NCBI GenBank assembly: GCA_000708835.1
Contig: DF237576.1
Coordinates: forward strand, 1-49,837
DNA length: 49,837 nucleotides
Origin: Klebsormidium nitens
Taxonomy: Eukaryota > Plantae > Klebsormidiophyceae
Reading direction: 5' to 3'
Position numbers and translations under genes: made by a program. This document shows positions 1 through 30,385 of this stretch, in pieces; position 1 is the first letter of the stretch; each line of letters opens with the position of its first letter. The notes below the pieces were generated by a model. That model did not search any database and was not told where the DNA came from. It saw only the letters and a list, made by a program, of their open reading frames with translations.

Positions 1-1
1 T

Positions 2-1096
2 CAATCGTCCCAGTAATCTGGTATTGTCTTCTTGACAAGCCGTGCCAAAACACCTGTAGAATACCTCTTGAAAGTCACCTGCGCATCCCTGGATTACAGT
101 GAAATTATTAGAGCCGTTATGTTGTCGTCCAAGGTAGCACGTTCGTGCACCATTGACGCAAAATTGAAAAGAACGATTGCCATTTGGAAGCACGGTCGAG
201 CCGCCATAGACGGCTGCACAATCGCTTGCTCTCTTTCGTAGCAGGTCTTGCACTTCGCGGCATGCTGTCGACCTCACGTTTGAAACAACGGTTTGAACGG
301 TGGGCGGCACGACTCCTGAGTTCGTCTCAAACTCTTGTACCGTGTCTCTGTGATTGACTTCTGAGCTTGCTTCCGGCAAAGAGTGCACATCCGGTGAACC
401 AGAAGCACGTCCAAGATTCACGAGGTCCACGAGGTACTGAGGCATCCCCTCTACACAAGCGTCTTTCAAGGTTGGCTCTGCACTCCATCTGTAGTGCAAA
501 ACCTTGCCATTTGGACCACTATAGGATGACGGCGGGGCAAATATTACACCACCAGTCCCTCTTCCATCGGCCCGGTAAATCTCGCCATCGACTTTCAAGG
601 TCTCAAAGTTGTTCAACTGCTTCAAGCCAGCGCTTTGATCCATTCGAAAGTACAGATGAAACCCTCCATTCCCGCTAATTGCTTTGAGTGTACTAGGCTC
701 CGTATGTTGAGTCATAAGCTTCCTCCAAAGGCTTAAACCACACAGTTTCCTCCCTTCATCGCCCACGTCAAAATCCAGGACGTAGAGCCCGCTCGGGCCC
801 GTCAGAATGGCAATACCATTGGGGTTTGGAAACCCTTCAAGTATGCCTTGAATGCTCTCTTTCCAGATCTGCGAAGTGAAAATATGATCCCACTTACGGG
901 GAAACTTAGTACCTTTCTTGCCGTTTGCTTTTACATAGATGCGTACTGGGATTCCGAAAAAATCAAGCATGCCTAGGCGCAAGATCTCAGCTTTGATGCC
1001 CTGGGGCCCTAGGGCCTTGGTTATATCTGGGGCCGAGGCCTTAGGACCGGCGACAGCGTGCTCGACGTCATGCGTAGCCATTCTTTCTACACTCAT
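2..1096 (-). CDS. Bifunctional primase-polymerase (Prim-Pol, PF09250-like) + Cys/His zinc finger, 3'-partial (runs off window)
   Basis: Hand translation from ATG 1096 gives 365 codons with no stop to position 2. It contains GIAILTGPSGLYVLDFD, SGNGGFHLYF, ADGRGTGGVIFAPPSSY..YRW and RTCYLGRQHNGSNNFTV..FYRCFGTAC. It is missing from the ORF track, presumably because it has no stop in the window. Confidence 0.9.
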   Translation of the reverse strand, partial: MSVERMATHDVEHAVAGPKASAPDITKALGPQGIKAEILRLGMLDFFGIPVRIYVKANGKKGTKFPRKWDHIFTSQIWKESIQGILEGFPNPNGIAILTGPSGLYVLDFDVGDEGRKLCGLSLWRKLMTQHTEPSTLKAISGNGGFHLYFRMDQSAGLKQLNNFETLKVDGEIYRADGRGTGGVIFAPPSSYSGPNGKVLHYRWSAEPTLKDACVEGMPQYLVDLVNLGRASGSPDVHSLPEASSEVNHRDTVQEFETNSGVVPPTVQTVVSNVRSTACREVQDLLRKRASDCAAVYGGSTVLPNGNRSFQFCVNGARTCYLGRQHNGSNNFTVIQGCAGDFQEVFYRCFGTACQEDNTRLLGRL

Positions 1097-1187
1097 CACA
1101 AGGAAAAAATCGAACCGTTCTGAACGCGACCACGTTTACTGCTGCGGTCGAGCAGCTAGCTTTATTTCCTAGCAACTACGTAGGACA

Positions 1188-1523
1188 ATGTCCCTGGTCT
1201 CCGGAGATTCAGCCAGCTTTGAGGACGGTGTTCGGCCGTGCCCTTGCAGGGCCTGCCAGAACCATAGGCGTTATCAACGATTGCATCCAGAAAGGCACAA
1301 AGAGCAAGTGAGGGCTTATTACGGTCGCAACCAGGAGAAGATTCTCCTGCAAAAGGCATATGCGCGATACATTGCAGGCCGCACAAAGAAATTCCACGAA
1401 CAAACTCTCGTGGGGCTGAGAAAGGCAGGATTTTCGATCCCACCACCGGACACAACGTCACAATTCACTAAGGAGAACGGACTATCTGGAGATATTCCGT
1501 CATATATATCAGCTGAGGCCTAG
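1188..1523 (+). CDS. Small basic hypothetical protein (virus-like helical motif)
   Basis: 111-aa ORF packed between Prim-Pol (divergent, 91 bp) and the recombinase (convergent, 62 bp). The basic segment RYQRLHPERHKEQVRAYYGRNQEKILLQK recalls YY..N.EKI motifs of large DNA virus orphans. Confidence 0.55.
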   Translation: MSLVSGDSASFEDGVRPCPCRACQNHRRYQRLHPERHKEQVRAYYGRNQEKILLQKAYARYIAGRTKKFHEQTLVGLRKAGFSIPPPDTTSQFTKENGLSGDIPSYISAEA

Positions 1524-1585
1524 TGGATACCTCACAGTGCTGCGATTCCGCTCAAACCTCAATGACAAGTGGTGTACATTGAGAC

Positions 1586-2647
1586 TTAAGCATTAGCAAA
1601 CTGTATCTTTGTTCCGTCTGGATTGTACTTCTTTTCATAGACTCTCATCTGCATTGAAGATGAATGAAGCATCTGTTTTGCGAGCGCCTCTCGTTCGGCA
1701 ATACTAGGTGCGTCCTTCATTGCATTCGAGACGCATATCTTTCGAAGCAAACAAGTGCCTACACGAGCATCCGGAAAGATCTGAGAGCAAAATTTGGTGA
1801 GGTAGTTGCGACTCATCGGCTGATCGGGTGTCCGCATGCGACTCAGGAGGAACTTCCGGGGGAAAACCTCGATACTCTCTGCGATTACGTTGTTAGTGCG
1901 CGTTGGCAGATCAATCGTTTGCTCTCCATACGTTTTTGCCGTTTTGAAATCCTTGAGCACAAGACGGAAGTGACCCTTTGCGAATTCGAGAAGATAGTTG
2001 CCGTTTCCGGCCATCAGGTCCTTCGTCGAAGGGGCATGGATATCATCAAAACGGACGATCGGGAGATCTGAAAAGTCATTGCGTAGACTCGGACCCTGGC
2101 TATACAACGAAAGCACTAAATAGCGAGTAAGAATGACCTTGTCTGCTACAGTAAGCTGTTCAGGAGATTTCGGCAAGATGGAGCGATTTACTCGTCGTTG
2201 CAGCTCCACGCGACGATCATTGATCTCTTGGAGAGTCTTCCAATTCCGAAATTCGGATTCGGTCATCACCTGCGGTGCAGGTTTGGCCCGTTCCATCAGT
2301 TCGCGGACCGCTTGATACCGTTTATAATATGTTTGATACAACTCGTTCTCTTTCGGGAACTCCTTCCTTACCACGACGAGAAGGGGGTTAATCCCCGTTG
2401 CTTGCATAGAGAGCTTGTCTGGATATGTATTAGCAAAGTAATCGATGATTTTAGTCGGATCCTTCAGCCAATCGAAGCTTGTTATCTCTGCCTCTGGACC
2501 GTACAACCCCTTATACAATCGAACGACATGATTGCAATATTGGCTGATGGTTATTGCCTTCCTACTGCCATCATCAAATACAGCTTGTAACAGCTCGAGT
2601 GTCCTTGGCAAGGTTATGGAGCGCGCGTCAGCCTTAGAAGCTTGCAT
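1586..2647 (-). CDS. Tyrosine recombinase/integrase (Polinton-like-virus/NCLDV-type YR)
   Basis: Intronless 353-aa ORF. Catalytic residues occur in order: R (PSLRNDF), K (DFKTAKTYG), R (CLLRK, with H of HxxR replaced by L), H (QMLHS), Y (RVYEKK). Confidence 0.9.
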   Translation of the reverse strand: MQASKADARSITLPRTLELLQAVFDDGSRKAITISQYCNHVVRLYKGLYGPEAEITSFDWLKDPTKIIDYFANTYPDKLSMQATGINPLLVVVRKEFPKENELYQTYYKRYQAVRELMERAKPAPQVMTESEFRNWKTLQEINDRRVELQRRVNRSILPKSPEQLTVADKVILTRYLVLSLYSQGPSLRNDFSDLPIVRFDDIHAPSTKDLMAGNGNYLLEFAKGHFRLVLKDFKTAKTYGEQTIDLPTRTNNVIAESIEVFPRKFLLSRMRTPDQPMSRNYLTKFCSQIFPDARVGTCLLRKICVSNAMKDAPSIAEREALAKQMLHSSSMQMRVYEKKYNPDGTKIQFANA

Positions 2648-2908
2648 AGTTGAGTTATCTTAGATACTATCGGAAAAATGTTGACCAGCAAACGAATCGG
2701 TCCGTCCTGGAAAAGTGAATATGGATGTTCGTCTTTTTCTGCGCGATCTGAGACACATAAAAGCTTTTGCAAGTTATCCGGTAAAAATGAGGTCCTAGAA
2801 CCCTTATTAGGCCTGGTCGAGGAAGTCTATTTTCGGCCGAAAAGTGAGTAAGCGAGAAAACGTGATTATTGCCGTACATCTTTCCTTCTTTGAGCACTTT
2901 GACGCCAT

Positions 2909-3457
2909 TCATTTTTCTAGATAGGGCAACGCTCCGTTACTTGTTGCTGATGCCGACCTCTTCGCCGGGTTCGCAAGCAGTTCGAGGCCCAGGACCTCAT
3001 CATCGTCTCCGGTCCAACCAATTGGCGAATCCCCAGTTGCTTCGCGCTCGAGATCGTGTGACCTGTGCTGAACATCTCCGTTGCTCCGCTCATGCATCCT
3101 GGCTCGTGGTTTTTGAGTTTTAAGAGCATTTCGTTTTGCTTTTCGGGCGCTATTGAGAGCCATTCGCCAATCTACGTGAACGCAGTAGGGCGATCCATGC
3201 ACGCCGCTCTTGTCCCAATGCGCATAAAAGCCCTCAGCAAGTAGGGACCTGACAATGGTCCGAGTAATGTGATCAAGACTGAAAGGTCGAGTCAGCGCCC
3301 GCAAACCTGCTATGGACCCTATATCAAGGTCAGTGCTCATGGATCCAAAGTCCTGATACGATCTCATGATTGCGAGTCTCACCGATCGAGATACTTTTTG
3401 ATCCATGTCGCGTATCATAGCTCGATCTCCAGGTTGATGACCAATAATAGAATCCAT
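2909..3457 (-). CDS. Hypothetical protein, 182 aa
   Basis: ATG-to-stop ORF upstream of and co-oriented with the recombinase. No recognised domain. Confidence 0.5.
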   Translation of the reverse strand: MDSIIGHQPGDRAMIRDMDQKVSRSVRLAIMRSYQDFGSMSTDLDIGSIAGLRALTRPFSLDHITRTIVRSLLAEGFYAHWDKSGVHGSPYCVHVDWRMALNSARKAKRNALKTQKPRARMHERSNGDVQHRSHDLEREATGDSPIGWTGDDDEVLGLELLANPAKRSASATSNGALPYLEK

Positions 3458-3549
3458 CCAATTCTGTGGACGTTATAGATTAGTACAGAGCAAATTGCGG
3501 GAGGTAATTGAACGGCCAAGATGATGTACATCCATTTACGAGCGGACTT

Positions 3550-4685
3550 CTAGTTGGATGAGGCGTGGCATCGTCTAAAGGCCTTCGACTTTCGAAATTG
3601 CCTCTCCAGCTGGTCGTTGATCCAGTTCTTCCTCGCTTCATCCAGCATATTCTTTGAGCACTCCTTCATTCGTTCTTCGTACTTGGCAAACTTCAGCAGA
3701 TAGACGATGTACTCTCTAACAAGTGCGAACTCTTCGTTCAGCCACTCCTTCCAGAGCATGCCTCCTGACTTCTGGGCAATCAGGCCGGGCTTGAAACGGC
3801 TGTCGTTCAGAGGCGCGAAGAGCTCTGTTGCATAGTGAGCTCGGACCCTTTCCCAAAGGCAATCCGCTCCTCCACATTCAAGCTCTCGTAGCCGGTCACT
3901 GTAGTGCCGCCTGAATTCTTCCAGATGTCGTGCGCTCCTCTCCTGTCAACATGCAAACACATTGTTGGAATATGTACACTGTTCTTGCAAATCATATTTG
4001 CAAAATGTGCCCCGGGCTACTGCAATGGTTGTAGATGTACATGAATAAAGCCTCTTTTGGTTGCAACGGTGAAGACTTAGCCTATTCAGCTCACCTGAAT
4101 CTTGTCTGGATGAAACCTGAGGGACCAAGTCGAGTGGCTCAATTGGATCGCCGCGGAGCCGAACCTCGACTTCACCTCGTTGGGGGTGAATTGAGCGTCC
4201 GCTAGAAGCCACGAGATCGGAGGCGGCATGTACCTCGGTGCTACGGGCTCCGGGGGTGTCAGTACGGCAGTCATGGATAGAGCGCGGTACTTCGCGATAT
4301 GGCGAGCGCGAAACACGGCCCGCTCTCCTCCCAAACTGGTCCTGTACTTTGCGACCGCCGCTTGATTGCCTTGCTGCTTCATGCAGCGGGCGGCATCCGG
4401 GCTCAGGCCTCGTAGTTTGGAGACGGGGCGCTCGCTGGGTAGCTTTGCTGGCTCGCAATCGGTCCTTGCACGGTGGGCCTCGAGAGCCTGCTTCGAAGCA
4501 AAGTCCTTATTGCATGCACCTTCAGATTGTATCGAATGATGCTCGAGGCAGACATAGCGGCCCTCACGCCTTTCCCAGCGCTGTCTGGATACCGCAGGCA
4601 CGTTGGAATGACTGTTTGAGGCGATGTTGGAATGTGCCATCCCGTGACTTAGTCTACCTGAAACTGAAGATGGTGTACATCTCAA
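3550..4685 (-). CDS. Two-exon protein with C2H2-like zinc finger and J-domain-like HPDK motif (exons 4685/4640-4095, 3942-3550)
   Basis: Exon 1 ends ..WSLRFHPDKIQ|gtgagc. The phase-0 acceptor ttgacag at 3943-3945 continues ERSARHLEEFRRHYSDRLRE.. to the stop at 3550. The N-terminal part has YVCLEHH..ACNKDFASKQALEAH. Confidence 0.6.
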
Positions 4686-4734
4686 ATTCTCCTAAGCCTC
4701 GATACGCTCCGTCGTCCAGCACGCTGGCCTGCGC

Positions 4735-5130
4735 AAACTCCGTCCGAGTGTCCGAGCTTTTGCCACGACTTTTCACCGGTCTTCCCTCATGACGTCAGCG
4801 GCCATGCCGGGCAAGTATGCGCTGTAATTGATAACGCAGACCCCGTCCGAGTGTCCGAGGTTTTGCCATGATTTTGGAGGGGGCTCGCTTGATGACGTCA
4901 GCAACCATAGATCTTGGGCAGTATGCGCTGTAGTTGATAGAGCGATCCCCGTCCAAGTGCCCGAGCTTTGGCCATGACTTTTAGCAGGGTCTTTTCTAAT
5001 GACGTCAGCGGCCATCCCGAGCAGTATGCGCTATAATTGATAGCGCAGACCCCGTCCGGGTGTCCGAGTTTTTGCCATGATTTTGCAATGGGCTCGCTTG
5101 ACGACGTCAGCAACCATTCCGGGCAGTATG
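4735..5130 (+). repeat. ~103-bp degenerate tandem array (GTCCGAG-T-GTCCGAG-N33-TGACGTCAGC unit)
   Basis: Core octamers at 4790, 4893, 5000 and 5102 (CGACGTCA). Units alternate A/B (..CAGCGGCCAT / ..CAGCAACCAT), forming a higher-order dimer. Confidence 0.9.
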
Positions 5131-7682
5131 TGAGTAGTAATGGACGGTGGGAACAGTGTCCAAGTTATTGCCATGGATCTCGACTGCAAATGGCGCACCC
5201 CGCGGACAATCAGAAGTTTCTTAAGTTCCAAGATACTCAACGCCGCCAGGTAGCAAACCACGCCGTATGTGGGCAATGCATGCCAATAGAATGATGGTTT
5301 TGAGACGGGCCTTCAGGATTAAAAAAGCATTAGCAGGATTAGATGAATGCCGCTACTAACTTGCAGTCATTATGTACAAAAACTCTGCACTCGTGAATAA
5401 ACAACTGCGAATGTTTGTCATCACTAATCGGTCTCTATAGTACCAGTAGCGGCGCAATTAACCATGCCCATAACTCACACTCAGATACATATCATCACTC
5501 GTATTCGCACTTCAACCCTACGTAGCAAGAACTTCGCTGGGACGGTGGCACGCCATCGAAGCGCCCGCCTCGCTTCGTTCTGTTGTAGCCCTTTGCGCGC
5601 ATTTGCCTAGCCAGCTCTTCCTTGGACATCTTGACCCCTGCGAACTCTTGGAACTGCCTCCAAAAGTCGTCCTCCCATGCGACGGACTGGGCTCCCTCGG
5701 GGGTCCCCTCCGGATCCACTTGGCAATGCTCTGACTGCAGAAACGTCTGCAGCTTGTCTCCACGGCGCAACCAAGCCATCTTGGCAGCCTGGACTGCCGG
5801 TGGGTGCCTGCGCAACACACTTGGATCTGCGTACCACGCGCAACTGCCTCTGACCAAAAAGGTAAGGAACTCCTCACAAACGGCAGGCGTCTCCATCCGT
5901 TCCTTGAGCTCGGTGTCAAGGTGCCTGTGCTTGGGGTTCGACTCGTCGAACTTGTCGTCCGAGACGTACTCGTTCGGAAATTGGACCACGACCAGGCGGC
6001 GCTCGACGTTGGGTTGGATGGCCAGCGTGGGTGGAACCTCGGGATCGTAGTTCGTTTGGATGAAGGGCGTGTGGGAGAATCGGAACGAAACGTTGTTCTG
6101 GTAAAGCAGCCGGGAACTGATCTTGCCGCCGCCGGTCATCGTGAGCACCAGTCCGAGATCCACGCGCTCGCCCGGGCTGGTCTCGTCGGTGATGGCAACC
6201 CGCAAGCCCTGCAATTCGGCCAGGTAGCCCGTGGCTGCGCCTTTCGAGGGGGCGCGCTGTCCAGGGGGCTTTACCACGGCGTCCTTTGACATGACGCCGT
6301 AGTAAGCGCCAAGCGTGGTCTCCAGCATCTGCTTACAGACCCCTTTCCCGTTACCTGGAGACATAAGCACGAACTGCTTGACGTTCGATCCGTGCACAGT
6401 CTAAAAAGCTTACAAGACGTACCCTTAGCATACGTTCGGTGCAGTCAATCTAACGAATAGTTCGTCGGATGGCTGCTGACGTCATCGAGGAGCTTGAGGT
6501 TCAAACTTGTTTCCAAAACTCAGACACTCGGACTCCGCACTTACAGATGCTGAGATGAGGCTGAGGATTCAAAGTTTGTCTGATTGCAGGAGCGTTGACA
6601 CCGAGCAAGCAAGCTGGCAGCGTTCGGACAAAGATTCATGTTCAGCTATTGCAAAGTGGACCTACCGCCGCTGCCGAGAAGAAAGACGATGATCTCCTCC
6701 GACGTCCGGCCGTTCATGGCGTATCCCCAGAGCCGCTGCATGAAGTCGATGAGGCCCCGATCGTCATTGAAGATGTCCGCCAGAAAAGCGTCAAGTGTGG
6801 GGGTCGGAAGGTCGAGTCCCTGCGCAAGATTGGCAAGTAAACTTGAGCACGGTGCCCCAATCTTTCCCAAAAGTGTGGCAAAAGACTGAGCAACCATCAA
6901 CTGAGAAGGCGTCTGTAGATAGCAGTCGCGGTTAGAGATATATGCCAAGCTGACTTGCTAATGTCGACCATTCTGCCGGGTACAGTTTCAAGTCTTCCGC
7001 ACATGTGAACGCTTGGTCCTTTCCGCGTTTTGTTGCTGATCAGGCTGGCTGTCTGGACGTCCGAAAAGGCGAGCGGTCGTGCTCGGTTCCAGTGAGGCAC
7101 TAAGCGGAGTGCAATTGATGTTTGGAAGCAAAAAGGGAAGAAGAAAAACTCACCCTGAAGGCAACATCGTCAAACTTTGTGCACATGTAGCCGGGCCTGT
7201 AGGTCCAACAGGCCTGTGCGCAGGTGGAGCACCCCGTTTTGGACGTTGAGGATGTCAGGATCGCTGTCCAACTCCTCCGCAAAGTGCTGGAACATCTCCC
7301 CTTCCATGATGCCCAATGTCGCATCCACCTCGTGCTTGTTGTTGTAGCTCTTGACTAGCTTCAGCAACATCATAAGCCTGAACTTCTCCTCGTCATCATC
7401 GGCCTGTTCGAGTTGAACCTCCAGCTGCTCTCGAAGGCGCCCATACACGATGCTGAGTTGATGCGTGATGGTGTATCGCACAATAGCATTGGTCGTCCGT
7501 TCGTACCGCCGGCCGTCCCAGACCCACCAGTCCTTCGAATCGTGCCAGAGCCTGCACCGAGAAAGACGAAGACCGATGTGGGTGTCAGTGCCACGCTACG
7601 CGAGACAGATTGGCTTACTGCTTTTCGAAATCGCTTTCAAGCTTAAGGGGAACGATGTCTCGTTTAGATCTTAATTGCTGAG

Positions 7683-8170
7683 ATGATGCTGTACGTGGGC
7701 GCCCTGGTCGATATGTGGCCGATCAGAAGATACGCACACGCGCACACTGAGTTCGTCTTTGTGGACGGGTTGCCGGAGAGCAAGTACTTTCGGCCAGATC
7801 AAAGCGGCTGGCAAGTCTACAAAGACAAAAGGACGATGGTTGCGTACATCAGAGCCAGCCTGCAATCTTTCGGCTGCGCGGCGGACCCACCCTGCGATCA
7901 TACTTTTTCAACCGGAAGGATGTCGACATACCAAAACAACCCAACTCCGAAGAACATTCTGCCCCAAGTGACAGCGCCTACCTTCACGCCTTTATGCCAG
8001 TACTGCCGCAGTTGCCTTCTTTGAGAAACTGCTATTGCACAGAGCTCTGTAGCGATGTGGAGTTGCTGGACACAGTAACGATTTCGACAATCCCAGAAGT
8101 ATCTGACATTTATGAGGATTTCAGCCACCAGAGGTACTGCGAAAACTGCGATGAGATTATCAAGTTGTAA
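7683..8170 (+). pseudogene. Antisense ORF nested in an intron (7552-8364) of the helicase gene; Rossmann/methyltransferase-like N-terminus; one frameshift near 7850-7900
   Basis: Starts MMLYVGALVDMWPIRR..EFVFVDGLPES. An overlapping frame (..QPAIFRLRGGPTLRSYFFNRKDVDIP..AYLHAFMPVLP..) stays open to TAA 8168-8170. Confidence 0.45.
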
Positions 8171-9039
8171 TTGCAGATGTGCATTTCACTTTGCAATCAC
8201 AGCGTGCATCAAAAGGCCGCTTAGTGATCCGAAATTGTGCTGCACACGTGCCAAAACACAGTGCAAAATGGGACGGAAGTGATTGTATCACTCAATGCAA
8301 TCCCGACCTGCATGTCAATCCGCAACAGAATGCTAGTTCAAGTCGATGAGAGCTTGGTGCTCACCTGTGGCTGTCCGAATACATCTGGGCAACAATCCGG
8401 CTGCCACCCTTGTCTCCCTGAAAGGCCCAGTTGTCCACAAACACCTTCGTCAGCCTCCCGTAGACAGTCATGTCCTCCGCTCCAAAGGGCGCTGTCTCGC
8501 CCAAGCATGCTCTCCTGCAGCGTGAGCTCCCCAATCATGCGCTTGGGCTGGATGTCGCAGCACTCGGAACTGCTGCAGTGGTACAGGAGTTTCTTCCCGT
8601 GCACCAGGACGCAAAAGTTGTTGGAGCCGCTGTGGTGCGCCCCATATGGGCACGTGCGCTCGCCGGCGACCCGGAAGACGTACATGTCGCCAACAGGGGA
8701 GCGCTTGCGCTTGTCGAAACGGGAGCGGAGATCGCCAGTGGCCGCAACACTCTCCTCGATGCGCCTCAGAAGCGCGGTTGCGGGAGGGTGGGCGACTTCG
8801 ACCGGATCGTCAACGTCTTCTGTGAAACGAACAGCGCAGCGAGCGACCCGATCGGACGACCTGCAAGAGACACGGAGGGTCAGCAAAAGAATGTGTGATT
8901 GTAGAATTTGCACGAGTGGCTGGTGACCTTATCAAACGACCACTCAGAAGGTCGCCACAAACTTTGGACTCTCGACATCGCGCCACAAAGTTGGACATTC
9001 GGACAGCTTTTCGGCTGTCAGTCCAAACCGGACTGCTGC

Positions 9040-9215
9040 CTTGATGGCTGCTGACGTCATCGAAAGAAGCCGTTCAAGAGTCACGGCAGAACTTCGGACA
9101 CTCGGACATGATCGACGCCATCAATCACATCGATTTTGCCCGGGATGGCTGCTGACGTCATCGAAAGAAGCCGCTCGAAAGTCATGGCATAAATTCGGAC
9201 ACTCAGACACAATGA
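9040..9215 (-). repeat. Two copies of the TGACGTCA/CTCGGAC unit inside intron 8861-9269
   Basis: TGACGTCA at 9052 and 9153, each followed after ~33 nt by a TTCGGACACTC(G/A)GAC motif. A single copy also lies at 6477 in intron 6355-6665. Confidence 0.85.
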
Positions 9216-10842
9216 CTCTGCTAGTCGTGTCACGAGAGCGCATTCGCTTCGGTGGAGGGAAGCACGCACCTGGGGGCGCTTGCGGGAGGATGCGCATCGC
9301 TCGCATTGAAGATCTGAATCAGCCAACCAGGCAATGCCCGCAAGTTGGAGCGGTCGGGGGCAATCTCTTGGACCCACTCGTACTGGCGGACCGTCCCGTC
9401 CAGGCCCTTGTAGCTGGAGGGCGCGACAAAGAGCATTCCTCTCTCCCCCCGTGTGTCAATCCCCACCTTCTTGCCTTTGTACCACACCCCGCCCTTGTTG
9501 CGAACCCCCTGCAGGCCCGCCTCTTTCGACTGAGAAAGGGAAAAGAAGAAGTGCTTCCCAGGCCGATGCCCCGTCCACTCCCATGGGGTGTCAGCAGGGA
9601 GGGCGCCGTGCTCCGCGAGCATCTCGTCAAAGGCCTCGCAACCGCCATCTTTAGAGTCGATGTCTACCACATACATGTCCGAAGCCCCCGTTGACATGGC
9701 CAAGCAATTCTGTCGTGGTTGGACCCAGCTCTGGAGGCAATTCCCAATGTCGCACTTGCTTTCCCAATCGCGCCTCAGCCCGATAGGCTTCTTCTTTTCC
9801 ACCCCTTTTCTGTTCTTATAAGCCCGGATCTGGAGGGTCATGGACACAACGCCGAGGCTGTGGAAGTGGTGCGCTGTGGCCAGGCACGGGTCGACGCAAG
9901 GGGCCCCGGGGACGGGACTGGTCTGAGCAGCAGGGCGAGGGCTGGCATCAGCGCAAGGGACGCGCGCAGCGGAACTGGGGCCTGCCTGGCCGGTTGGGGA
10001 GGGCGGAGGGGAACGGGGCAGGTCACCAGCAGCCGTGCGCGAGGCGTGAGCAGAGGGGCGCACAGCGACTGGCGCGCACGGCTCGCAAACGGAGAGCCCG
10101 GAAGCAGCAGCGGCGCTCGTGGCAACGGCCGGGCAAGCAGACTGTAAGGAGATGACAACGACATATTGAATCAGCAGTCGGAGATGCGCTGACCATGCAA
10201 TACGCAAAGCAATAAGCCGCTCACCAGGGAGCCAGATCTGGGACCACCGTTCTACTGAGGAAGAAAATCCAGATTCGCATATCTTTATACTGGCTCTGGT
10301 CGTCTTTCGTGTACATTTACATTGATATGCAGAGCGCAATTGAGATTGTACTTCAGATGGACATCAAAGTTGAGTAATGGTTTACACAAGTACTCCAAAC
10401 GCACTGGTCACTAAGTCATCTAGAGGCTTGGAAAAAAGTTGCGTTCTATCAAAAAGAGCCAAAAGTGCGATCCTGCCTGGTTCCAAAATGGAAGTCAACT
10501 CGGCAAGTACCTTTCTGGGTATTTTCAACTGGGAAAACGAACAGCCAAAACCTAGGATCGTTTGGTCATGGCTTCGGTAAGCTTCGTGTACAGATGCAGT
10601 TATTTCCATAAAAGTAAGTGCGAATGTACACCATACTGACTCCGTGTTGCTGAATGTACTCAAACCCCGCCGATCGTCAAGAGACCGTTGGATCTATGAG
10701 AGCAATGCATTGTCCGCGAATCTGGTCAGTCGGATTAACCCGAGCAGCTAACCCAGTCGGAAAAACACCGGCGTTCTTTTTCTGGTCAGAAGGTCGAATT
10801 CTGAAAGAAGGGGGAAAAAAGAAGCACTCGTGGCAAGCTCAC

Positions 10843-13800
10843 ACTGCTGCAGCCCCGCGGCGGACGTGGCACGATCACGCACTTGGTGACAAAGTCCTCC
10901 CCGACCTGGTCCACGTCGCCAGGCCCTAGGTCGTCGCCCTCGAGCCAGCCGTCGTCCTCGGGTCTGGGGGGGGGTTCGCTGGACAGCCACCGCGGCACGC
11001 TGTCACCGGTCTGGGGGGCTGCTTCAGGCATTGGGTGATCAGCACCCGCACCAGACTCAGGAGGGTCAGCCCCTCTGCGCCCCATGTCCTCAACACGTGC
11101 GGGGCTCTGGTGTCGGGGTGGGCTGCCCTCCTCAGAAGAGGACTCAGACGAAGCCAGCATCGCACGAGCCCGGCGCCTGGTTTGAAGAGGGGAACGAAGG
11201 TTGGTTGCCCCCTCCGGCGCTCCTCGCTTGAACCTCCGCCTCAGAAGCTGGGGGAAGTCTTCTGATTCGGAGTCGATGTCCATCGCTGCGTTGTACCGGC
11301 CGTGCTGAACCACAGGGTTCTCTTCGTCTTGAGAAGCGTCGTCGAACATGGACCCTTGGGGGGTCTCCTCGTCCGAAGACTCCTCCTCTCTCTCGAACTC
11401 TGCCCCCTCAATGTCCTCGCCCTCTCCTTCCGATTCCGAGCTCTGAGATTCGTCCTCACTGGGTGAGTTCGTCAGCTGATGGTTGTCCTTGCTGGCCGCC
11501 TGCAAAGAGATGCGCTTGCTTTTTAGTCAGCAGACGACTGAGGTCGAAAATAAGCACCCAAGGTGGCCCGCTGGTTCATGGCGGTCTGGTCGAACTCCTA
11601 GTCGCTCATGGGGAAAGCGCACATGGGGTGCAGCAACTGTGAAAGCCTTTGCAAAAAAGCCAAAGCTGCTGGTCCAAGTGTCCGAGCTTTTGTCATGATT
11701 CTACCTTCGAGGTTCTTAGTGACGTCAGCAGCCCGTCCCGCGTAGTATGCGCTAGACTGACGGCTCAACCCTGTCCAAGTGTCCGAGGTCTTGCCATGAC
11801 TCTGACCTTGTGCTACTGCATGACGTCAGCAGCACAGCCCCCGGCGTATTGCGTTGTGTTCAACGCCCCGTGCTCGCCTCCCTGGACAAGTGCGCGTAGA
11901 AAAAGACGAAAAACTTCCGTGCTGACCCATGGGCGCTGACATCATCCGAGAAGGTCGAAGAAAAGTTTTGGCGAAAATAAATCGGACACTCGGACAGTCT
12001 CTGCGCTGTGGATTACAGCAAATTCTACCTGGCCTGGGCGCTGACGTCATCAGGGAAGGTCGAGACGAAAGTTTGGGCAAAAACTCGGACATTCGGACAG
12101 GCTCTGCGCTGAACGGCGGAGGCCTCGCCTGTCCAAGTCGCCCGAGCTCCGAAAACATATCATAGAGCTGCGACGACGTCAGCAACGAAACACCGTGAAT
12201 ACTTTTGGCAAAACCTTGGACACGTGGACAGAGCTCCAAGCGCCCAACCCTCCTTAAAGGGACCCCAATTTTACAATGTCTGGCGGATACCTTGGCAAAT
12301 GTTCAGTGTCCTTCTGAAGTGTCCAGAATTCAGACGAAATCTTCCGGAACCAGTACGATGACGTTAGCGAATAGCTGCCAGAATTATCTTATGCCAACCC
12401 CCGGACACTTCGACAGCCCCTTGAGTGCCCAGACTCACCGAAAGCAATTGCAATCAAAACAATGTCTGGCGGATAGAGGTTGTCCGAATGTCCCAAGCTT
12501 CGGAACAAAATCCCCAAGAGCCAGTCAATGACGTCAACGAAAACATGTCCGAGGTTATTTGGACCAGGCCTCGGACGTTTGGAGGGACCAGCGAGCCTAG
12601 ACCAGCGAGCCCTACTAATAAGCGGTCTTGCAAAAGGCGATTTTGGCCAGGTTTGGCGCTGAATCTTCAGCTCGGACACACACGATGACGTCAGCAGCGG
12701 ATCTCGGCCAGCCTGTTGCGTTGTCGTCACCAGAGAGAGAAAAGGGATACTTCACACCAAACCTCACGCACCTGGATTGGTGGCCAAAAGCAAAGGACCC
12801 CGTGCTTCGAAGGAGAGCTCTCCAAATAACGAAGCCCGTCGAACATGAGCCTACCTGGCGAAAGGGCGTCGTCTCCTGCACCGCAGCGCGGGGGCTGGCA
12901 CGCGTAGGAAGTGCTGACGTGGCCGCAGACATGGACGCATCTCGGACGGATGGCCCGGCAGAAGTGGCCGCTGTCGCTGCGACGGGAGCCATCGATTCGC
13001 CGTGCTGGGGCACCGCCTGCACAAGTTCCAAATCGATCACATGAGAAAAGAGAAGCCGAAGTCAAACATCTCACCCGAGTTAGCCGCACAAGAAAAGCAA
13101 GTAAGATCACAATCACAACCGGGCAAGCTCCGATCAGATGTTAGGATAGGAGACACGCCGAAGCTGATCGCGCGCGCATCAGGTTCACTAATTCGTGTAC
13201 ATCCTCAAACAATGTCGTGAATGCCTGGGAATGTACACGAAGGGAGGGCAAACATGATCGACTATACACTTCCGTACGAACTGCTCAGGCCTCAACTCGA
13301 CGAGAACTTGAACAACTTCGGAAAGACAATCGACCATGGAAAGTGGGCACACCTGGCGCGCAAGAGACTCCCTGCGCTCCTGCCCCGAACGAGGGTGGAT
13401 GCGGCAAACGCTGAAGTACTGGCGCAGCTCCTCGGATTCGCGCTCGTCGTCCCAGCCCCAGAAAGGGTCGTCGTCATTACGAAGGTCCCCCCACTCGCTC
13501 GACGTAGCAGACTGCCCCCCTTCCTCGGAGCCCGACTCGCCAGCTTCCGCTTCCGCTTCCGACAAGATCACCCGGCGACGACGCCGCTGACGGGGCTGCG
13601 ACTCTCCACTCTGTTCGCTCCCTACGCGCTTGACCCGCTTGCGTGGCCCCCCCAATTGAACGCCCGACTCTGTCTCTGACGGCCAGAGCTCGGCGTCCAT
13701 TGCAGCGTACTCGCAGAATGGGGGGTGGTCCAGTGGCTGAGGCGAATCGTTCCTGAAGGCACGGTCCTGCGAAGTCTCCTCGTCAGAAGACTCTTCCTCC

Positions 13801-14724
13801 CGGTTGAATTCCACGTCCTCTATGTCCTCTCCCTGGGACTCTGCTTCCATGCTCGGACCGCCACTCTCCTGATAGAAAGAGAAAGGAACGGAAATGGTCA
13901 GAATGAGGGGATGCTTGGATGGACGCACTGCTTTTTAGGCGAATGTGTGAGCACCGTACACAGCCCACAGCCTTAGATCGACGGGAGATACCTCAGCCGC
14001 GCCCTGTTTGCCTTCAAGCCGTTATTAAAGCGCGTGCCCGATAGCCACATACACGAGCCATCATTACAGGAGATTCGCATAAGAGCCCCGTAAAAATGCA
14101 AAAACGCTGAAGACTGGCGGGGAGTCGGGCGCCCTGTAGGTCCACAAGAGAGAGGGGCTGAAGGCAGCCCTCTATCTGATGGTCAACGTCAGCATCGGAT
14201 CATGTGAAGCTGCCGCTTCAGCTGCCGACTCAGAACATTAAGAAAACCTCCAGTCCCTGCGAGATCTGATTGAATACTTTCTGCCTCCAAACTTGGCGTC
14301 ATCACGATTCTTTTTAAGCCTGTTACGTGGGCGTCCAAGATGTCCAAGCTTTTGCCTAAACCTTTTCGAAGATTGATTTCATGACGTCATCCGTACTCTC
14401 ATACCCTATGGCCTGACCTTCGGTTGGATACTCGAGATGGTCCGAACTCTAACCTGAAGTACCCTGCTCTGTGAACTGCATTTTGTAGTGTCGAATCACC
14501 AAATGTTGTGAACAACACCGTAAGAGATACAAAAAAGCGCTCACCTCCATCCTCGCGTCCTCCACGTCCCAATCTCCTCCACCGCTCCCCACAGGGGTCG
14601 GGCGCGACTGCGACAGGGGCGGGAACGAGGCTGAGGCCGAATCCGCGCTGCCCACCACCCCGTCTGATGAGGGCCCCGGGTTGCTCTCGACGCAACCAAT
14701 CATCAAGAGTATTGCTGCATACAT
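10843..14724 (-). CDS. Putative 5' exons of the Prim-Pol-helicase gene (14724-14545, 13868-13353, 13016-12855, 11499-10843): 2A-like peptide + acidic disordered regions
   Basis: Each exon has a canonical CAG acceptor and/or GT donor, and all junctions are phase 0, including 10843 to 10141. Exons 13868 and 11499 are paralogous (GEDIE.{2}EF.REEESSDEET.Q). Membership in one transcript is inferred, not shown. Confidence 0.5.
11670..12700. repeat. Cluster of TGACGTCA/GTCCRAG units in both orientations (intron 11500-12854)
   Basis: Forward units at 11720 and ~11821, reverse units at ~11936 and ~12042, a symmetric unit at ~12175 and degenerate ones at ~12359, ~12529 and ~12686. Confidence 0.8.
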
Positions 14725-14984
14725 CGGAAAGAGGGCGATTAGGGTGCACTGCGATGCTCAAACGTTTGGACAACTCGCAACAAAAAGAGAACGCTGACAA
14801 AAAGGGCTTCCCTGCAGGATGAAAGGGGCAGGCACTGCTAAGCAGAACGTAGGGTATTCAGCGCCTTACCTAGCAGCGCATGGCTCATGGGCTTCGTGGG
14901 GGGCAGCGCCGCTTTGAAGTTGGCCGCCTCCCAAACTGCACAAGCAACAAACGACGCGATCAGCTGAAAGCGACAAGACACTGA

Positions 14985-15490
14985 TGACGTCAGCTGATGA
15001 CGTCAGCAATCTGGACGACAGAAATACTTTGCGCTAGAGCTTGGACAACTCGGACAGGGCCTGTCCGAGTCCACGCCGTCAACTACAGACTGGCGGTCTG
15101 GTGACGTCGGCAAGCTGGACGACAGAAATACTTTGCGCCGGAGCTTGGACAGTTCTGACAGGCCCTGAGCGAGTCCATGCCATCAGTTACAAGGCACTAA
15201 TGACGTCAGCAAGTCGAACAAAGGAATACTTTGCGCGACAGCTCGGACAGCTCGGACAGCTCGGACAAGCCCTATCCAAGTCCACGCTATCAACAACAAT
15301 GAAACGATGACGTCAGCAATCGAACGAAGGAACTATTTTGCGCCAAACCTTGGACAGATTGGACAGGGCCTGTCCAAGTCGACGCTATTAGTTATAGGAG
15401 ACTGATGACGTCAGCAATCGAGCGACGGACTTACATTGTGCCGGACCTTGGACAAATGGGACAGGCCTTGACCGAGTCCATGCTGTCAGC
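14985..15490 (-). repeat. ~100-bp degenerate tandem array, same family as 4735-5130 in opposite orientation
   Basis: Cores at 14985, 14998, 15102, 15201, 15308 and 15406, followed after ~34 nt by CTYGGAC.. and a GGACAGGGCCTGTCC-type palindrome. Confidence 0.9.
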
Positions 15491-15650
15491 TACAACTTGC
15501 AAGAGAAACCCCTAACTCAAGGGAAACCCCTAATTGAACCCGTCAGCAAGGAACGACCGAAAAACAAACTGGAGATGGATGACCAGATCATTTCACCCCA
15601 GAGCTTAAACCTTTGAGAGCAAGAGCCTCGCAAGGCAGCAGAAAACTCAC

Positions 15651-16046
15651 CTGGCAAGCAGGAGGCTGACTCTGCAAGAGACGTGGCAGGCCCCTCCATC
15701 TGCTGCAGCTCCTCTTCGAGCCATGCAACCGCCGCTTCCAAACGGCGCTGAACTCGACCCCGTACCCAGACTGCAAAAGGCAGGCGCATTGAATTGAGAC
15801 CCTATGTGACGACAAACATGAAATCTTTAATGGACACAGCTGTACATGCATAAGCTTGCAAGAATGCTTCAGGCCTGTGCAAAGGCTTCACAAACCTCTC
15901 ACCTGCGCGGTCTTTGTCGATGCAGAAGCAGCCGTTGAAACGGGAGTGCGCGCTGCAGAGGTATCTCGTTTCCCCACCCTCCTTGCTTCCACGAAGCCCA
16001 TACTCCGCGGTGGTGCCGCACTCATGGCAATGAAGGCTATGTGGAT
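15651..16046 (-). CDS. Internal exons (16046-15903, 15770-15651) of an unknown gene with a Cys/His motif resembling the EsV-1-7 repeat
   Basis: The phase-1 junction gives HCHECGTTAEYGLRG..YLCSAH..GCFCIDKDRA|VWVRGRVQRRLEAAVAWLEEELQQMEG. First and last exons not found. Confidence 0.4.
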
Positions 16047-19000
16047 CTGGGAAGGATGTGGGAGAAATCCAAGTTTCAGGTGCAAAGCTTGTGCAGTCTA
16101 AAAGCGTCGAGAGCACTGCAAGCTGGGCTTGACCTGTCTGTCCAAGTGTCCAAGGTCTGGGGTAAGATTTTGAGTGGCATCAATCTGCTGACGTCATCCT
16201 ACAGGCTTCAAGATTTTTGCTTGGACACCTGGACAGTCAACTTCTTGGCCACATAGAGTTCTTGCTCTCACAACAGTCCTGGATCCTTGCCTTCTATTGG
16301 CAAATGAGTTTCAGTGTCCAAGGAACATGAATCTTGCCCGTGAAACCCAACTCAAGTTCCTTATTCAACTTGGTAGCAGCAACTTAGACGCGTGCTCCAA
16401 AGAACGAAAGAATCAAACCAGACACTTGGCGTGCACTCACCGGCACTATGCATGCTGATTGCCAACTTTGCGCTGGCCCACAGCCGTCCTGAGAGAGGGA
16501 TACTTCAGCGCTGCAAGCGGCACGCTGCTTGTGAGAACACTCGGTAGAGATCTAGATGGGCCACCCGTGTTCATTCACCCAGGCGTCCTGCAAGTATAAT
16601 AGCATGTATCAGTTGAGTCCAGAAAAGACGCAGTCTCTGATTGGCACTAGACATCAGTCACACGGTGTTAGGCATGCGATGCATGCTCGAACCCAGCTGC
16701 TTGACTTTGTGATGGGAGCTGACGGTCCTGCGAAGCTGGAGACCTTACATGCCTCATGATGGTCTTTGTCTCAGAAAGAGACCGGAATCTATTTGACCTT
16801 AGGATTGACTCCTACGTGCTGCAACCTGAAAACACAATGACTCTGAAAGCCCAGATTCTACAACCGCTGAGGCACAGCCATTTCTTCAGTTGCCAGCAAT
16901 CAGCACTTGAGGGACACCACAAATACAAGTCTATAAAGATGCTTTATAGATGTAAAACCCCCGGCAGCTTCAATAGCCACCGTTGCAGCTCAAAAAGGTA
17001 ACTCTTCAACGATGATTCATTCAGCAACAAGGCACAGCTTGAAAAAGCAATAGATGCTCACCACAGAAAGTTGCGCTCCCTCGCCTCCAGCTCCCCTAAC
17101 CTGAGGTTCTGCAGATCGATGTACTCCCCCCTTCTGAATGCTGGAAAAAGCCCTCTGGAGCACCTTATATATGGTGCACCGCCGGAAGCCGCCAACGGGT
17201 GCCATTCCCTGCCAGCCAGCCTGGCATATCTCAAGCCAGCTGAGTCAGAAGATGCTTTGCTGACTAAGCAGATGGACAGCTGGCAGGGCTGCAAAGTGGT
17301 GCCGGAGCCCGCCATTGTGTGCCGCATTGTGCCGGGCTGCCAGCTAGCTGCATGGTGGACAGCTGGCAGATTGCATGCAGAAGACAGCTTAGCCATCCCC
17401 ATTGCTGACCAACTCGTAGGAGAAAAGTCAGGGTATCAAAAACCTGAGAAAAACACGCCTTACGCAAGAGCCTACGTTCTGCTCAGGGCAGCCATTATGT
17501 GGCCCTTCTCTTCAAACTCCAAAGGTGCTGCAAAGCCAGCTTCAACTTCACGTTCAGGTTCCAAGTTCAAGCATGTCTGACTAGAGTACTCTCAGGAGTA
17601 GCCTGAGCGGAAAATGTTGTGACTGACAGGTAAAATGGGCCCGGTTTCGAATTTCACCAGCCTATACAGAAGTGTACAGGCCCTTATAGAATGCTTTCTG
17701 CTCCAAGACTGCCCGGCTAGGCTGCTAAAGGTAATCTTGCTTATAGAATATCTGGGAGAATTTAGAAGTGGGCCGGTGGGAATTGGCATTTGCGCCGTAA
17801 GTCTGTGCGCTCGGATGGTGTGCACCGCCTTGCATCTTCCAAACGTCAGGGAGCATGCAGGCTTTCGATCCGGGTTCGGTCTCCACAGGGGTTCTCCAAC
17901 CGGTTTGGCCCGGGGGGGCTGACGTGACGCCCCTCTATATGCCGTTCAACCATACAGATTCTCGACTACCTAGTGAGGCCAGACGTAGTCAGCTTCAAAA
18001 TCTTATAAGGCACAGATATGCACCACAGCACATGCCGATCAAAAACGCGATGAATGGTAAAGAAAAGTGCGTAAACTTGGTCTATAATCGTAGCGCTGAA
18101 AAGGAACTCCCGCTTGATGACATTTGCTCTAAAATGGCATATACAATAGCGGTTCATACATGCGGACCATGGCAGCCGGCACACCACTCGAATATATCTT
18201 GCATGAGGCTACATAGAAATTTCGTAGATCGACTGGTGCACCAAATGGTGCACCAACAAACTTTGTGGTCGTTCTATACGCCGCGCTTGGAAAAGATATG
18301 GCTTTGACATGACTCGTGACTTAAAATCACCTTTTGCGGGACCTGTTGTTTTACACATGACTTGCATCCAGCGCATTTGGACAATCTACACAAGTGTGAT
18401 CTCAAAACATTCTCTTACGCACCGCCAAACGGGTCTAACTATTGACATTGGTTACACCGGGGCATCCTTTGGGGGTTTCAGGTCTGCACGAGAGAGATGC
18501 AAATAAATCAGACTTCCAAACGAACATTGAAGATCTCCGCGCAAGCTCTACCGCCGAAGTGTGTCCAAAAGTGGTCTTCAAAGCAGTAGCAATGAGGTAA
18601 ATCTCTGCTTCTATCTACGAGGCACAATGGATTTGAGAGGCGCAGATATGCTGTGAGAAAGTTGGGGCAAACAGGAGGAAAGTTTTGGCTCAGAAACATC
18701 TTCCTTAAGTCCCTAGGTGGCGGCTCAAGCATTCTGTACTCCAGATGCTACTGGCTGTATTGGCGACTAGAGCTGAAGAGAGTTTCGTCCAAAACCATTT
18801 CCGAGAGTGCTTACATTCACACCAAAGCAAGAAACTCACGTTTCAGATGGGGTTCGAGCTCTCGCAAAGCTTCGTCCATAACCTGTCCCGCAAGGAGGAA
18901 GGGGTGCTTCGGTTGTGTCCGAATCTCGTACGGAAAGCCCAGAATCCTGCAAATTGACTACTATGTCTGTCACAGACCAGGGTGCGGAACGTATATAGCA

Positions 19001-19674
19001 CAACTTTCCTCAACGAGCAGGGATTTCGAGGTGAGCCAACAAAGAAAAAGAAGTAGAGGAGATTGTGGCCTCAATGGCATGGGGGGCAGCTTTGATGACG
19101 GTTCCAAATGATCCCCAAACGACATTGTTCGCAGCTGCAGCCGAAGTCAAAAAGCACGATAACATCCCAAGGAATTTGGAAGCCGCTGCCGAACCAACTG
19201 ATCAAGCCTAAAGGCGTCTCAACCCTCAATGAAGAGCAACTCGTGTCACTTCCTTGCCAAAATGTTTCAAGGCTAGTACTGCTGGTGGAGACATGGAGAA
19301 GAAGAAAAACAGCTTCCAACCACGAAGCACCTAAAGGGACCTTTCCACTTACTCGAAGCACGAGGCCAGCAGTAGGGTTTCTTCATCTTCTTGGTCCCCC
19401 CTCCAGAGGATGAACTTTTGGGCGTTTGGGTCGAGTAGATGGTGCGGCATATGCGATGCAGTCCAAATAACCTGAGCGTTACTCTCGATGTACCGCTGCA
19501 AATCACCGAGCCGCTTCTGGACAATCGGAACCCCCTCTTTTGATGCGCAGGTGTGGCAAAGGAGCGCACCGTCTTCACTGCAAAGTAGAAACCCATAAAA
19601 TGGTAGTAAGTATAGTTACTAATTGAGTTAGGACTAGTCCTATTCAGACTTGACTATCGTCAGGCAATACAAGC

Positions 19675-23412: not shown

Positions 23413-24120
23413 TAAGTTAGTTCCCGGTTTCCGGTCCACCCCCTTCGGACTTCCAAGCACCACGGTGCTCGGTCGGTCGGAGGCCTTTCGACCCCGGTTT
23501 GGGCTCCCCATCCCCGGTGCAAAAAATATTGTACAGGTCGGGGCGTTTTTTTGAGCGAAATTGAGGGGTCGGGGTCGCCGAAGGCGGCCTCGGGGGGCTT
23601 GACGGGGCGCAGCCCCGGGGTCCCGGGGGCCCGAAGGGCCCAAATTTTGATCTGATTGGACTCGAGCATTGCTTGCATGTGCATACCTAATACAGCGTTT
23701 AGGGTTGGAAACCCCATGAATCGTGCTCGAATCGTGTGCACCGAAGCTATAAAGTGTTCAAAGCTACGTGTAATCTAGCCCACATAGTAGTCACGGAAAG
23801 AGACTCACATGCACTTGAGACATATTGGAAGACATATCTACTTCCATCGATGTAAAACCTTCATTCACTAGCTTGTTGCAGTTATACTAATTCTCGCACA
23901 TTTAGATTACAAATCTTTATATATGCATGACAATCTTGGCTTGAATAAATGGGGCCCAAATATTATGTCAAGGTGTCCAGTAATCAATCCATCTTGCAGT
24001 TTTCCTTCACAATCCAAATCGGAGTTCATAATCTATGCCGATGCAGGATTGCAGCCAAAAAAATAACAATAAATGAACAATCACAATAAAATATGCTAGC
24101 CTTGGGCTACCGGTTTGACC

Positions 24121-30100: not shown

Positions 30101-30128
30101 TGGCAGCTTGACTGGGGGCAGACGCCAT
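24121..30128 (-). pseudogene. Spliced DDE transposase, DUF6729-like / DxxH (MULE-hAT-P-Kolobok) clan; exons 30128-29525, 29209-28814, 28545-28274, 28025-27878, 27518-27195, 26923-26435, then low-complexity and Myb-like exons to 24121
   Basis: N-terminal Cys domain (IRCPKCG..DGW..RRV..YRC). Other motifs: QLP..LPIIFTRGGAIERSL, GDHTF (D1), MWVDN (D2), VLEDATHVLRR (DxxH), RGCSSLEGYHRHLN (E). In-frame TAG at 26862-26864 just before the E motif. Confidence 0.8.
25987..26141. other. Assembly gap (155 N) within a Pro/Gln-rich exon of the transposase
   Basis: Run of N in the sequence. Confidence 1.
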
Positions 30129-30385
30129 GCCTTCGGTTTGTACCTGTCAGAGCTTTACTTGGTATAACAGTCGAAAGAAGACAACGTGCCTGAGCTTCTT
30201 CTCCAGTAGCACTTTGACACCAGCTTTCGAAGTTGTTCAGAAGCTCAATTACGGGTCTCTCACCGAGTCCCACCACAACAACCCTCCAGACCTTGACTGA
30301 TGCTTCCCCCCAGAAGAGCGAGATAGCTGCAGCAACGTCGAGCCGTAGGATTCTGTGCCACGGTTCAAAATCGCATGGACCAGAA

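Follow-up and report, generated by a model that had tools for sequence, protein, structure and literature searches.

A virophage-type tyrosine recombinase and two Prim-Pol replicases at a scaffold end of Klebsormidium nitens: probably two neighbouring units

The question raised by the left end of contig DF237576.1 from the streptophyte alga Klebsormidium nitens (assembly GCA_000708835.1) is whether its first 16,240 bases make up one mobile element. The window analysed here is the whole stretch from position 1 to 49,837 of the forward strand, and its base 1 is an assembly end. A tyrosine recombinase (YR) gene lies there between two genes with primase-polymerase (Prim-Pol) domains, and a first-pass annotation made from the sequence alone proposed a single integrative replicon, without visible capsid genes, resident in an algal nucleus. 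All of the genes in that annotation are real and the listed gene content stands, including the Prim-Pol genes flanking the YR on both sides (PF09250 at 2-1096, E 7e-16, and at ~9230-9841 on the minus strand, E 1e-15). The algal host is confirmed as well, since the helicase exon is 100% identical to the K. nitens protein KFL_006270020. The single cassette, however, is not supported: the 16-kb span is likely to be two neighbouring units, one covering bases 1 to ~3500 and the other bases ~4700-16240. The reading favoured here, which has about an even chance of being correct, is that the left unit is a module of the type found in Polinton-like viruses (PLVs) as well as virophages, truncated by the assembly or by decay, and that it stands beside a separate, host-transcribed replicase relic.

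The case for two units is that the right replicase differs from the left one in clade, gene structure, base composition and repeats, and the span 1-16240 is therefore unsupported as one element. The two Prim-Pol domains share 27-30% identity, and in a 9-row tree the spliced trio KFL_006270020, KFL_007640060 and KFL_002130220 splits from the intronless Prim-Pols with 99/99 support and a long stem. The GC content at third codon positions (GC3) is 0.46-0.53 in the left open reading frames (ORFs) versus 0.74-0.77 in the right-hand exons. The left replicase gene is intronless and the right one is interrupted by many introns, in which most copies of a ~100-bp repeat are found (see below). A repeat search of the window found no repeat pair linking the left end to 16240, and the spliced gene would not fit on the 6,906-nt contig that probably carries a linked copy of the left module. 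The rival explanation, one element with two replicases, can point to main genes that all lie on one strand and to an architecture common to both replicases (Prim-Pol, a linker with an HxGSNNF motif and Cys residues, then D5); moreover, unless either unit has the other as its target, chance alone would hardly place two primase-helicase genes next to each other. Set against the differences just described, this explanation is very improbable.

The left unit is best characterized through its YR, an intronless gene at 1586-2647 (minus strand) that encodes a protein of 353 aa. Foldseek and profile matches assign this protein to a virophage/PLV/giant-virus type. The catalytic R, K, R, H and Y recognized in the first-pass annotation are indeed present, and all five are invariant across an alignment of 8 relatives (R189, K235, R302, H328, Y337); the His position of the HxxR motif is Cys299 in this copy. 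The ORF had no match in Pfam, PHROGs or NCBIfam, including no Phage_integrase match, and sequence searches of the PDB were blank. The AlphaFold model of the YR is modest (pLDDT 64). Compared with viral integrase-like proteins by Foldseek, it gave a best E of 2e-7 and 13 rows at E <= 0.001, the named top matches being those of Pyramimonas orientalis, Aureococcus, Tetraselmis, Heterosigma, Harvfovirus and Hokovirus, and it also matches Cre and XerA weakly (E 0.012-0.03). Just upstream of the gene, at 2648-2690 (minus strand), a TTTTTCC ... TATCTAAGATA stretch looks conserved, by eye, in the N-terminal extensions of two relatives (P0001 and P0003). A similar TTTTTCC also precedes the left Prim-Pol, and the two stretches are a possible shared promoter.

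The YR is a member of a multicopy clade at the protein level. Close relatives account for 28 of its 29 matches (53-75% identity; 17 from JGI, 8 from Logan, 2 from ENA and 1 named K. nitens protein), their host being inferred from the one named protein and its 90% cluster. In an 82-row FastTree that leaves out rows below 280 aa and P0110-P0187, the 19 full-length rows form one clade with support 100 and several subclades. The first-pass annotation had looked to phylogenies of both the YR and the helicase; the former gave the YR its own clade, and the helicase-only tree, with its long branches, was uninformative. Some relatives (P0008 and P0011) have substituted catalytic arginines. The nearer YRs from outside Klebsormidium (n = 9) are hypothetical or unnamed proteins on contigs of 1-260 kb, and the three sister-clade YRs are on contigs of 89-260 kb. 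A profile search extended to 4,307 proteins at E <= 0.001. No close relative was present among 50,697 phage records or GTDB genomes, the single GTDB match being spurious (a 33-residue non-coding stretch), and neither the YR's own clade nor the two replicase clades were represented by a locus in the scans of IMG/VR and JGI metagenomes.

Viral contexts are found on a more distant branch, whose members are ~24% identical to the window YR and align to its profile over 301 columns (hhalign 99.9%, E 2e-31). Five IMG/VR loci represent this branch, of which L002 and L006 are the same genome, leaving four distinct contexts. A Sputnik-type major capsid protein (MCP; PF21915) is encoded near the YR in 3 of the 4 distinct contigs (L002/L006, L003 and L004), and the scanned ORFs of L006 further include a penton (PF21507) and a D5 helicase. 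In L005, a related YR accompanies an AEP-PriCT-D5 gene (AEP, archaeo-eukaryotic primase), with no capsid match in the 2 ORFs scanned. The YRs of L002/L006, L003 and L004 lie near MCP, penton-like and protease-like genes, and the replication genes of these loci differ (D5 in L006, Herpes_ori_bp-type in L004).

The left Prim-Pol gene (2-1096, minus strand) is intronless, runs off the scaffold end, and carries the motifs DxD, GGFHLYF, DGRG and HNGSNNF together with a Cys/His linker. Five long relatives (37-61% identity, 651-1057 aa) that share this linker came from a search of proteins of 640-2000 aa, and two of them are named K. nitens proteins. Because all five bear D5_N, the gene is predicted to be the N-terminal part of a Prim-Pol-D5 fusion, that is, of a replicase with a superfamily 3 (SF3) helicase, cut by the scaffold end. 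The scaffold and the matching DNA contig both stop inside this gene, with the contig extending only 30 nt beyond base 1. Between the Prim-Pol and YR genes, and divergent from the former, is a basic orphan ORF of 111 aa (1188-1523, plus strand) that matched no family in Pfam, PHROGs or NCBIfam. Kinship with a basic ORF of a virophage was considered and rejected, the similarity being weak and compositional.

This arrangement appears to recur. A YR with 75% identity (P0002) and an intronless Prim-Pol-D5 protein with 37% identity (P0190) are each encoded on a single Logan contig 6,906 nt in length. P0190 has an N-terminal extension whose sequence matches ORF 1188-1523 read in antisense (joint E 2e-12), so the small ORF is apparently kept at the corresponding position of a further copy. 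The contig thus probably contains a second copy of the trio of YR, small ORF and Prim-Pol fused to a D5/SF3 helicase. The first-pass annotation had allowed for a chance juxtaposition of unrelated fragments, should no other genome link a YR to a helicase. Since the linkage probably recurs, mere chance is an unlikely account of how the YR came to lie beside the left replicase, to which this argument is restricted. In three sequencing runs there is next to no cover of positions 1-4000 by RNA-like contigs, which is not evidence of silence; RNA-like here and below refers to runs that were guessed to be RNA, none of which is on record as RNA.

How far does this module resemble that of a PLV? PLVs are defined by their MCP, minor capsid protein (mCP) and packaging ATPase, and some carry an OLV11-like YR with a primase-superfamily 3 helicase (PMC4642659; 10.64898/2026.06.19.733378). 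A YR with a primase-SF3 helicase has been described as a mobile PLV end module next to a terminal inverted repeat (TIR) (PMC11296320). The left unit has this feature, a YR beside a predicted primase-SF3 helicase, which is common and not universal in PLVs (OLV11 was not among the comparisons). The catalytic residues, the domain content and the clade membership are shown; the claim made for the left unit is that it works like a PLV end module, rather than that it belongs to the PLVs. Seven PLV/virophage-type MCP loci are listed for K. nitens in the supplement of PMC10120064.

Capsid and packaging genes were sought throughout the scanned ORFs of the window. Capsid, ATPase, family B DNA polymerase (PolB), reverse transcriptase (RT) and HUH proteins gave no match (32 + 11 ORFs with Pfam, 15 with PHROGs, 9 with NCBIfam), and six frames of 1-17.5 kb contain no contiguous Walker A motif. 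ORFs as large as a capsid gene are all accounted for within 1-17.5 kb, and there is no match to a PLV double jelly-roll MCP, with profiles that are not PLV-specific and a scaffold that ends inside the module. No scanned window ORF matched the Sputnik-type MCP profiles PF21915 and PF22031 or the penton profile PF21507, all from a library that detects such proteins in L003, L004 and L006; the penton in general went unmatched in the scanned ORFs, and the mCP is described as poorly conserved in PMC4642659. Likewise, no Pfam match in the window ORFs indicated a Crypton-type YR alone, an RT, HUH-Pif1, or protein-primed PolB (pPolB) with RVE, the respective marks of Cryptons, DIRS elements, Helitrons and Polintons. 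No TIRs bound the left unit, one end of which lies beyond the scaffold. The first-pass statement that capsid, ATPase, PolB, RT and HUH genes are lacking therefore holds for the scanned window ORFs; leftwards, beyond the cut Prim-Pol gene, the absence of a capsid cannot be judged.

Several observations weigh against a PLV or virophage origin of the left unit. No capsid gene, ATPase or TIR was found beside this YR or beside any YR of its own clade, and the capsid-linked YRs, only ~24% identical, are not among the 30 rows of the clade to which the window YR belongs. In the end modules of PMC11296320, the primase-helicase is located between the TIR and the YR; this geometry predicts capsid genes on the right, where none was found. 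YR relatives occur on 20 JGI contigs versus the 7 published MCP loci, in different assemblies. The 6,906-nt linkage of P0002 with P0190 rests on equal size, equal source and the antisense match, just one of the five long intronless Prim-Pol-D5 relatives is paired with a YR, and none of four JGI contigs with an intronless-type Prim-Pol-D5 matches any of the 20 YR-bearing JGI contigs in size. In addition, the best structural matches of both the YR and the replicase are giant-virus proteins.

The first of these observations lead to an alternative, in which the left module is complete: a family of capsid-less integrative replicons of ~7 kb, consisting of a YR and a Prim-Pol-SF3 replicase, would have multiplied in Klebsormidium, either like plasmids or as satellites packaged by a PLV or giant virus. 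In that case the spliced gene would be either an independent neighbour or a relative that has acquired introns and is mobilised in trans. Adding the ~1.8 kb of helicase that is missing in comparison with P0190 brings the visible left unit to roughly 5-6.5 kb, which is near 6,906 nt. The lack of any capsid or ATPase match to the right of the YR, the published geometry, the apparent excess of YR contigs, and the 28 close relatives with their fully supported and subdivided clade all favour such a family, and the substituted arginines of P0008 and P0011 are as expected of decaying mobile copies. Nevertheless, the scaffold stops inside the replicase, the distant YR relatives sit in capsid-encoding virophages, and neither ends nor a target-site duplication nor an empty site was found in the window; furthermore, 6.9 kb need not be the size of the element, because Logan contigs break at repeats. 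On balance this alternative is unlikely.

The structural matches bear on another explanation, in which giant-virus (Nucleocytoviricota) DNA became integrated in the alga and both units are what remains of it, the right one being older and intronised. Besides the YR matches given above, the replicase model has Bodo saltans virus, Homavirus and Harvfovirus proteins as its top Foldseek matches, from a low-confidence model (pLDDT 47.5) that is poor outside the Prim-Pol. The sister-clade YRs on 89-260 kb contigs and the YR of L005, coupled with AEP-PriCT-D5, are consistent with a giant-virus source, and phycodnavirus-like DNA polymerase, MCP, ATPase and VLTF3 have been reported from Klebsormidium (PMC5294986). 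However, the scanned window ORFs gave no match to the giant-virus core genes PolB, MCP, A32 and VLTF3, a tight cassette of YR, small ORF and Prim-Pol probably recurs, and a small mobile unit better explains a multicopy, diversified YR clade. A giant-virus remnant is accordingly judged a rather poor prospect.

If the left unit is instead a PLV- or virophage-type module, as favoured here, it would be the integration and replication end of such a virus, with the other genes lying beyond the scaffold end or lost. Its YR would carry out the integration and excision of a genome in circularised form, and priming and unwinding during replication would fall to its Prim-Pol and the SF3 helicase fused to it. 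A giant virus would probably help, as in the integrated TsV-S2 elements of the green alga Tetraselmis, which are described as having a D5 helicase-primase adjacent to the YR and capsid genes on the opposite side, and as being awakened by a giant virus (10.1101/2025.10.09.676808).

The right unit is a spliced gene that has paralogues with a common intron and has lost its helicase frame in this copy. It extends over 5495-16047 (minus strand) with ~12 exons, is annotated as KFL_006270020, and encodes a Cys/His-rich N-terminus, two acidic modules, a Prim-Pol, D5_N and an SF3 helicase. On the window, the annotated protein falls into 11 segments between 16047 and 5498. Pieces of D5_N and P4/D5 helicase lie at 5495-7595 (minus strand), and an additional D5_N exon, at ~7551-7154, became apparent from the paralogue P0038. 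The NCBIfam search gave a match to TIGR01613, the C-terminus of P4-family primases. Joins of 8858 with 9268 and of 10141 with 10843 are present in RNA-like contigs from two studies, without any difference from the window; in three runs, 13015 is joined to 13352 with CT..AC ends. The transcript's 3' end is near 5307. Divergent contigs, with 54-98 other letters, skip the intron 6353-6664, which argues that spliced paralogues have this intron in common. The named paralogues are KFL_007640060 (74% identity in the helicase exon) and KFL_002130220 (47%), from a search with the helicase exon that covered proteins of 507-2000 aa. Relative to P0038, the frame changes near 8500 and near 7200 in this copy. 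The break near 8500 recurs in contigs of two RNA-like runs that are free of gaps and of differences, and the one near 7200 is seen only in a DNA run, possibly the source of the window. With two frame breaks, this copy can make a Prim-Pol at most and no helicase. The right unit would have begun as an older replicase gene of viral derivation that passed to control by host RNA polymerase II (Pol II), spread as a family, and is now decaying here. A literature search found no description of the Klebsormidium YR clade or of the spliced Prim-Pol-D5 family, most subscription papers and Repbase being outside its scope.

The repeats that mark 4.7-16.24 kb go unmentioned in the first-pass annotation. The ~100-bp unit has two TGTCCRAG-like words ~45 bp from TGACGTCAGC, with the core GTCCRAG-TGTCCRAG ... 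TGACGTCAGC. An nhmmer profile found 26 copies of the TGACGTCA-bearing repeat, all within 4726-16240 and nowhere else in the window at E < 0.005; none of the 26 overlaps an exon, and 10 shuffles gave no match. Seeds of the profile account for 15 of the 26 copies. Independently of the profile, 29 of the window's 31 TGTCCRAG words are within 4700-16300. Four tandem units of ~103 bp lie downstream of the spliced gene (4711-5126, plus strand), 20 copies are intronic (6468-15497, in clusters at 6468-6545, 8917-9231, 11660-12698, 14331-14393 and 14992-15497), and a head-to-head pair sharing a TGACGTCA palindrome lies just upstream of the gene (16103-16240), as a candidate promoter or end. At 11660-12238 the units run + + and then mostly -, forming a fold-back block of ~600 bp within one intron, a layout like that of miniature inverted-repeat transposable elements.

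The layout of these repeats resembles that of the baculovirus homologous regions (hrs), which PMC13513840 describes as arrays of 1-7 units with motifs like the cAMP response element (CRE) that act as enhancers and origins. The repeats here are likewise dispersed arrays of 1-5 short units with a CRE-type TGACGTCA, a likeness of layout only; unlike the hrs, they lack the 30-bp EcoRI palindrome and are located in the introns of one nuclear gene. By this analogy, the TGACGTCA repeats would act as enhancers bound by basic leucine zipper proteins, and perhaps as replication origins. A bolder proposal, which we offer tentatively and consider unlikely, is that Klebsormidium harbours undescribed capsid-less nuclear replicons of two kinds: YR + Prim-Pol-SF3 elements of ~7 kb, a eukaryotic counterpart of the PICI/P4 satellites, and an intron-rich, Pol II-transcribed Prim-Pol-SF3 lineage in which the CRE-bearing ~100-bp arrays would be hr-like origins or enhancers. 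If true, this would be a class of self-replicating transposons that use a primase-helicase instead of pPolB or HUH.

Two smaller features lie inside the spliced gene. An exon contains, at 14671-14694 (minus strand), the 2A-like motif CVESNPGP (LLMIGCVESNPGP), the only match of a six-frame scan, in which Cys stands in place of the canonical Asp. It could separate the N-terminal Cys/His module from the remaining protein; no paper containing the LLMIGCVESNPGP string was found. Within the intron 7552-8363, an antisense ORF of 113 aa (7683-8024, plus strand, GC3 0.67) had no homologue in NCBIfam, Pfam, atlas or IMG/VR searches. Antisense ORF sequence of high GC3 spans 7683-8167 (plus strand), and RNA-like contigs cover 7525-8393 unspliced.

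The remaining genes of the span were described in the first-pass annotation as small orphans, and several do lack a family match. One is an intronless ORF of 182 aa (2909-3457, minus strand), perhaps followed by an 81-aa ORF at 2667-2912, for which Pfam, PHROGs, NCBIfam and the atlas search gave no usable match. The pair 3553-3945 and 4086-4640, on the other hand, is probably one spliced gene, since the two ORFs would be read in frame across a predicted canonical GT-AG intron. This predicted two-exon gene (3550-4640, minus strand, 312 aa), which lies between the two units, would encode a C2H2-like zinc finger (zf-C2H2_6, E 0.03), an HPDK motif and a helical C-terminus. The HPDK motif is one that we take to be J-domain-like; a J-domain reading of the gene was dropped, with no support in Pfam or the PDB.

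To the right of the span, a spliced gene without a family match occupies 18371-21640 (minus strand), its exons joined by RNA-like contigs without differences. A fragmented large gene with DUF6729 (E 7e-6), possibly transposase-like, extends over 24100-30200 (minus strand) across a 155-N gap. The regions 32826-33188, 35897-37118 and 37829-41700 contain coding-like tandem repeats, one with a KPKDPNRPK motif that is presumably HMG-box-like, a 7-copy family of ~60-nt repeats, and a C2-domain gene with repeated exons. A pair of BTB-domain genes lies in inverted duplication (76-80%) at 44689-48994.

Should the left unit be a PLV end module, it would provide a case from the streptophytes in which the YR forms a clade of its own and the replicase is a Prim-Pol, a useful but expected addition. 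The less ordinary part of the locus is the spliced multicopy Prim-Pol-SF3 family with its element-confined CRE-type repeats, in which a viral replicase gene exists in spliced form in the nucleus of an alga related to land plants. The system offers a direct test of how a capsid-encoding virus turns into a capsid-less transposon or a host gene, in an alga that is cultured and sequenced.

Among known systems, the closest comparison for the left unit is the PLV end module (TsV-S2x, Gezel-14T/PgVV and the entomopoxvirus-associated PLVs), with which it shares neighbouring, intronless genes for a YR and a primase-D5/SF3 helicase that are grouped on one side, in the nuclear genome of an alga. Unlike PLVs, the window shows no MCP, mCP, A32 ATPase or TIR, the left primase is a PF09250 Prim-Pol rather than TVpol or AEP, and the YR forms its own clade. 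Sputnik-type virophages (L002/L006, L003 and L004) share the YR profile match over 301 columns and, in L006, a D5 helicase; they differ in the ~24% YR identity and in having capsid genes, none of which is seen here. The P4 and phage-inducible chromosomal island (PICI) satellites of prokaryotes carry an integrase plus a primase-helicase. Like these and like transpovirons, the locus recalls small, capsid-less, helper-dependent replicons, and it has the TIGR01613 match. Transpovirons, which are capsid-less, differ in that their helicase belongs to superfamily 1 (PMC3671162), whereas the helicase here is D5/SF3. P4 and PICIs differ in that the host here is a eukaryote and that the searches gave neither a Phage_integrase match nor a close phage relative of the YR. 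Finally, Cryptons encode a YR only, of another family. The locus resembles them in having a eukaryotic multicopy YR, but this YR is of the virophage type and is linked to a replicase.

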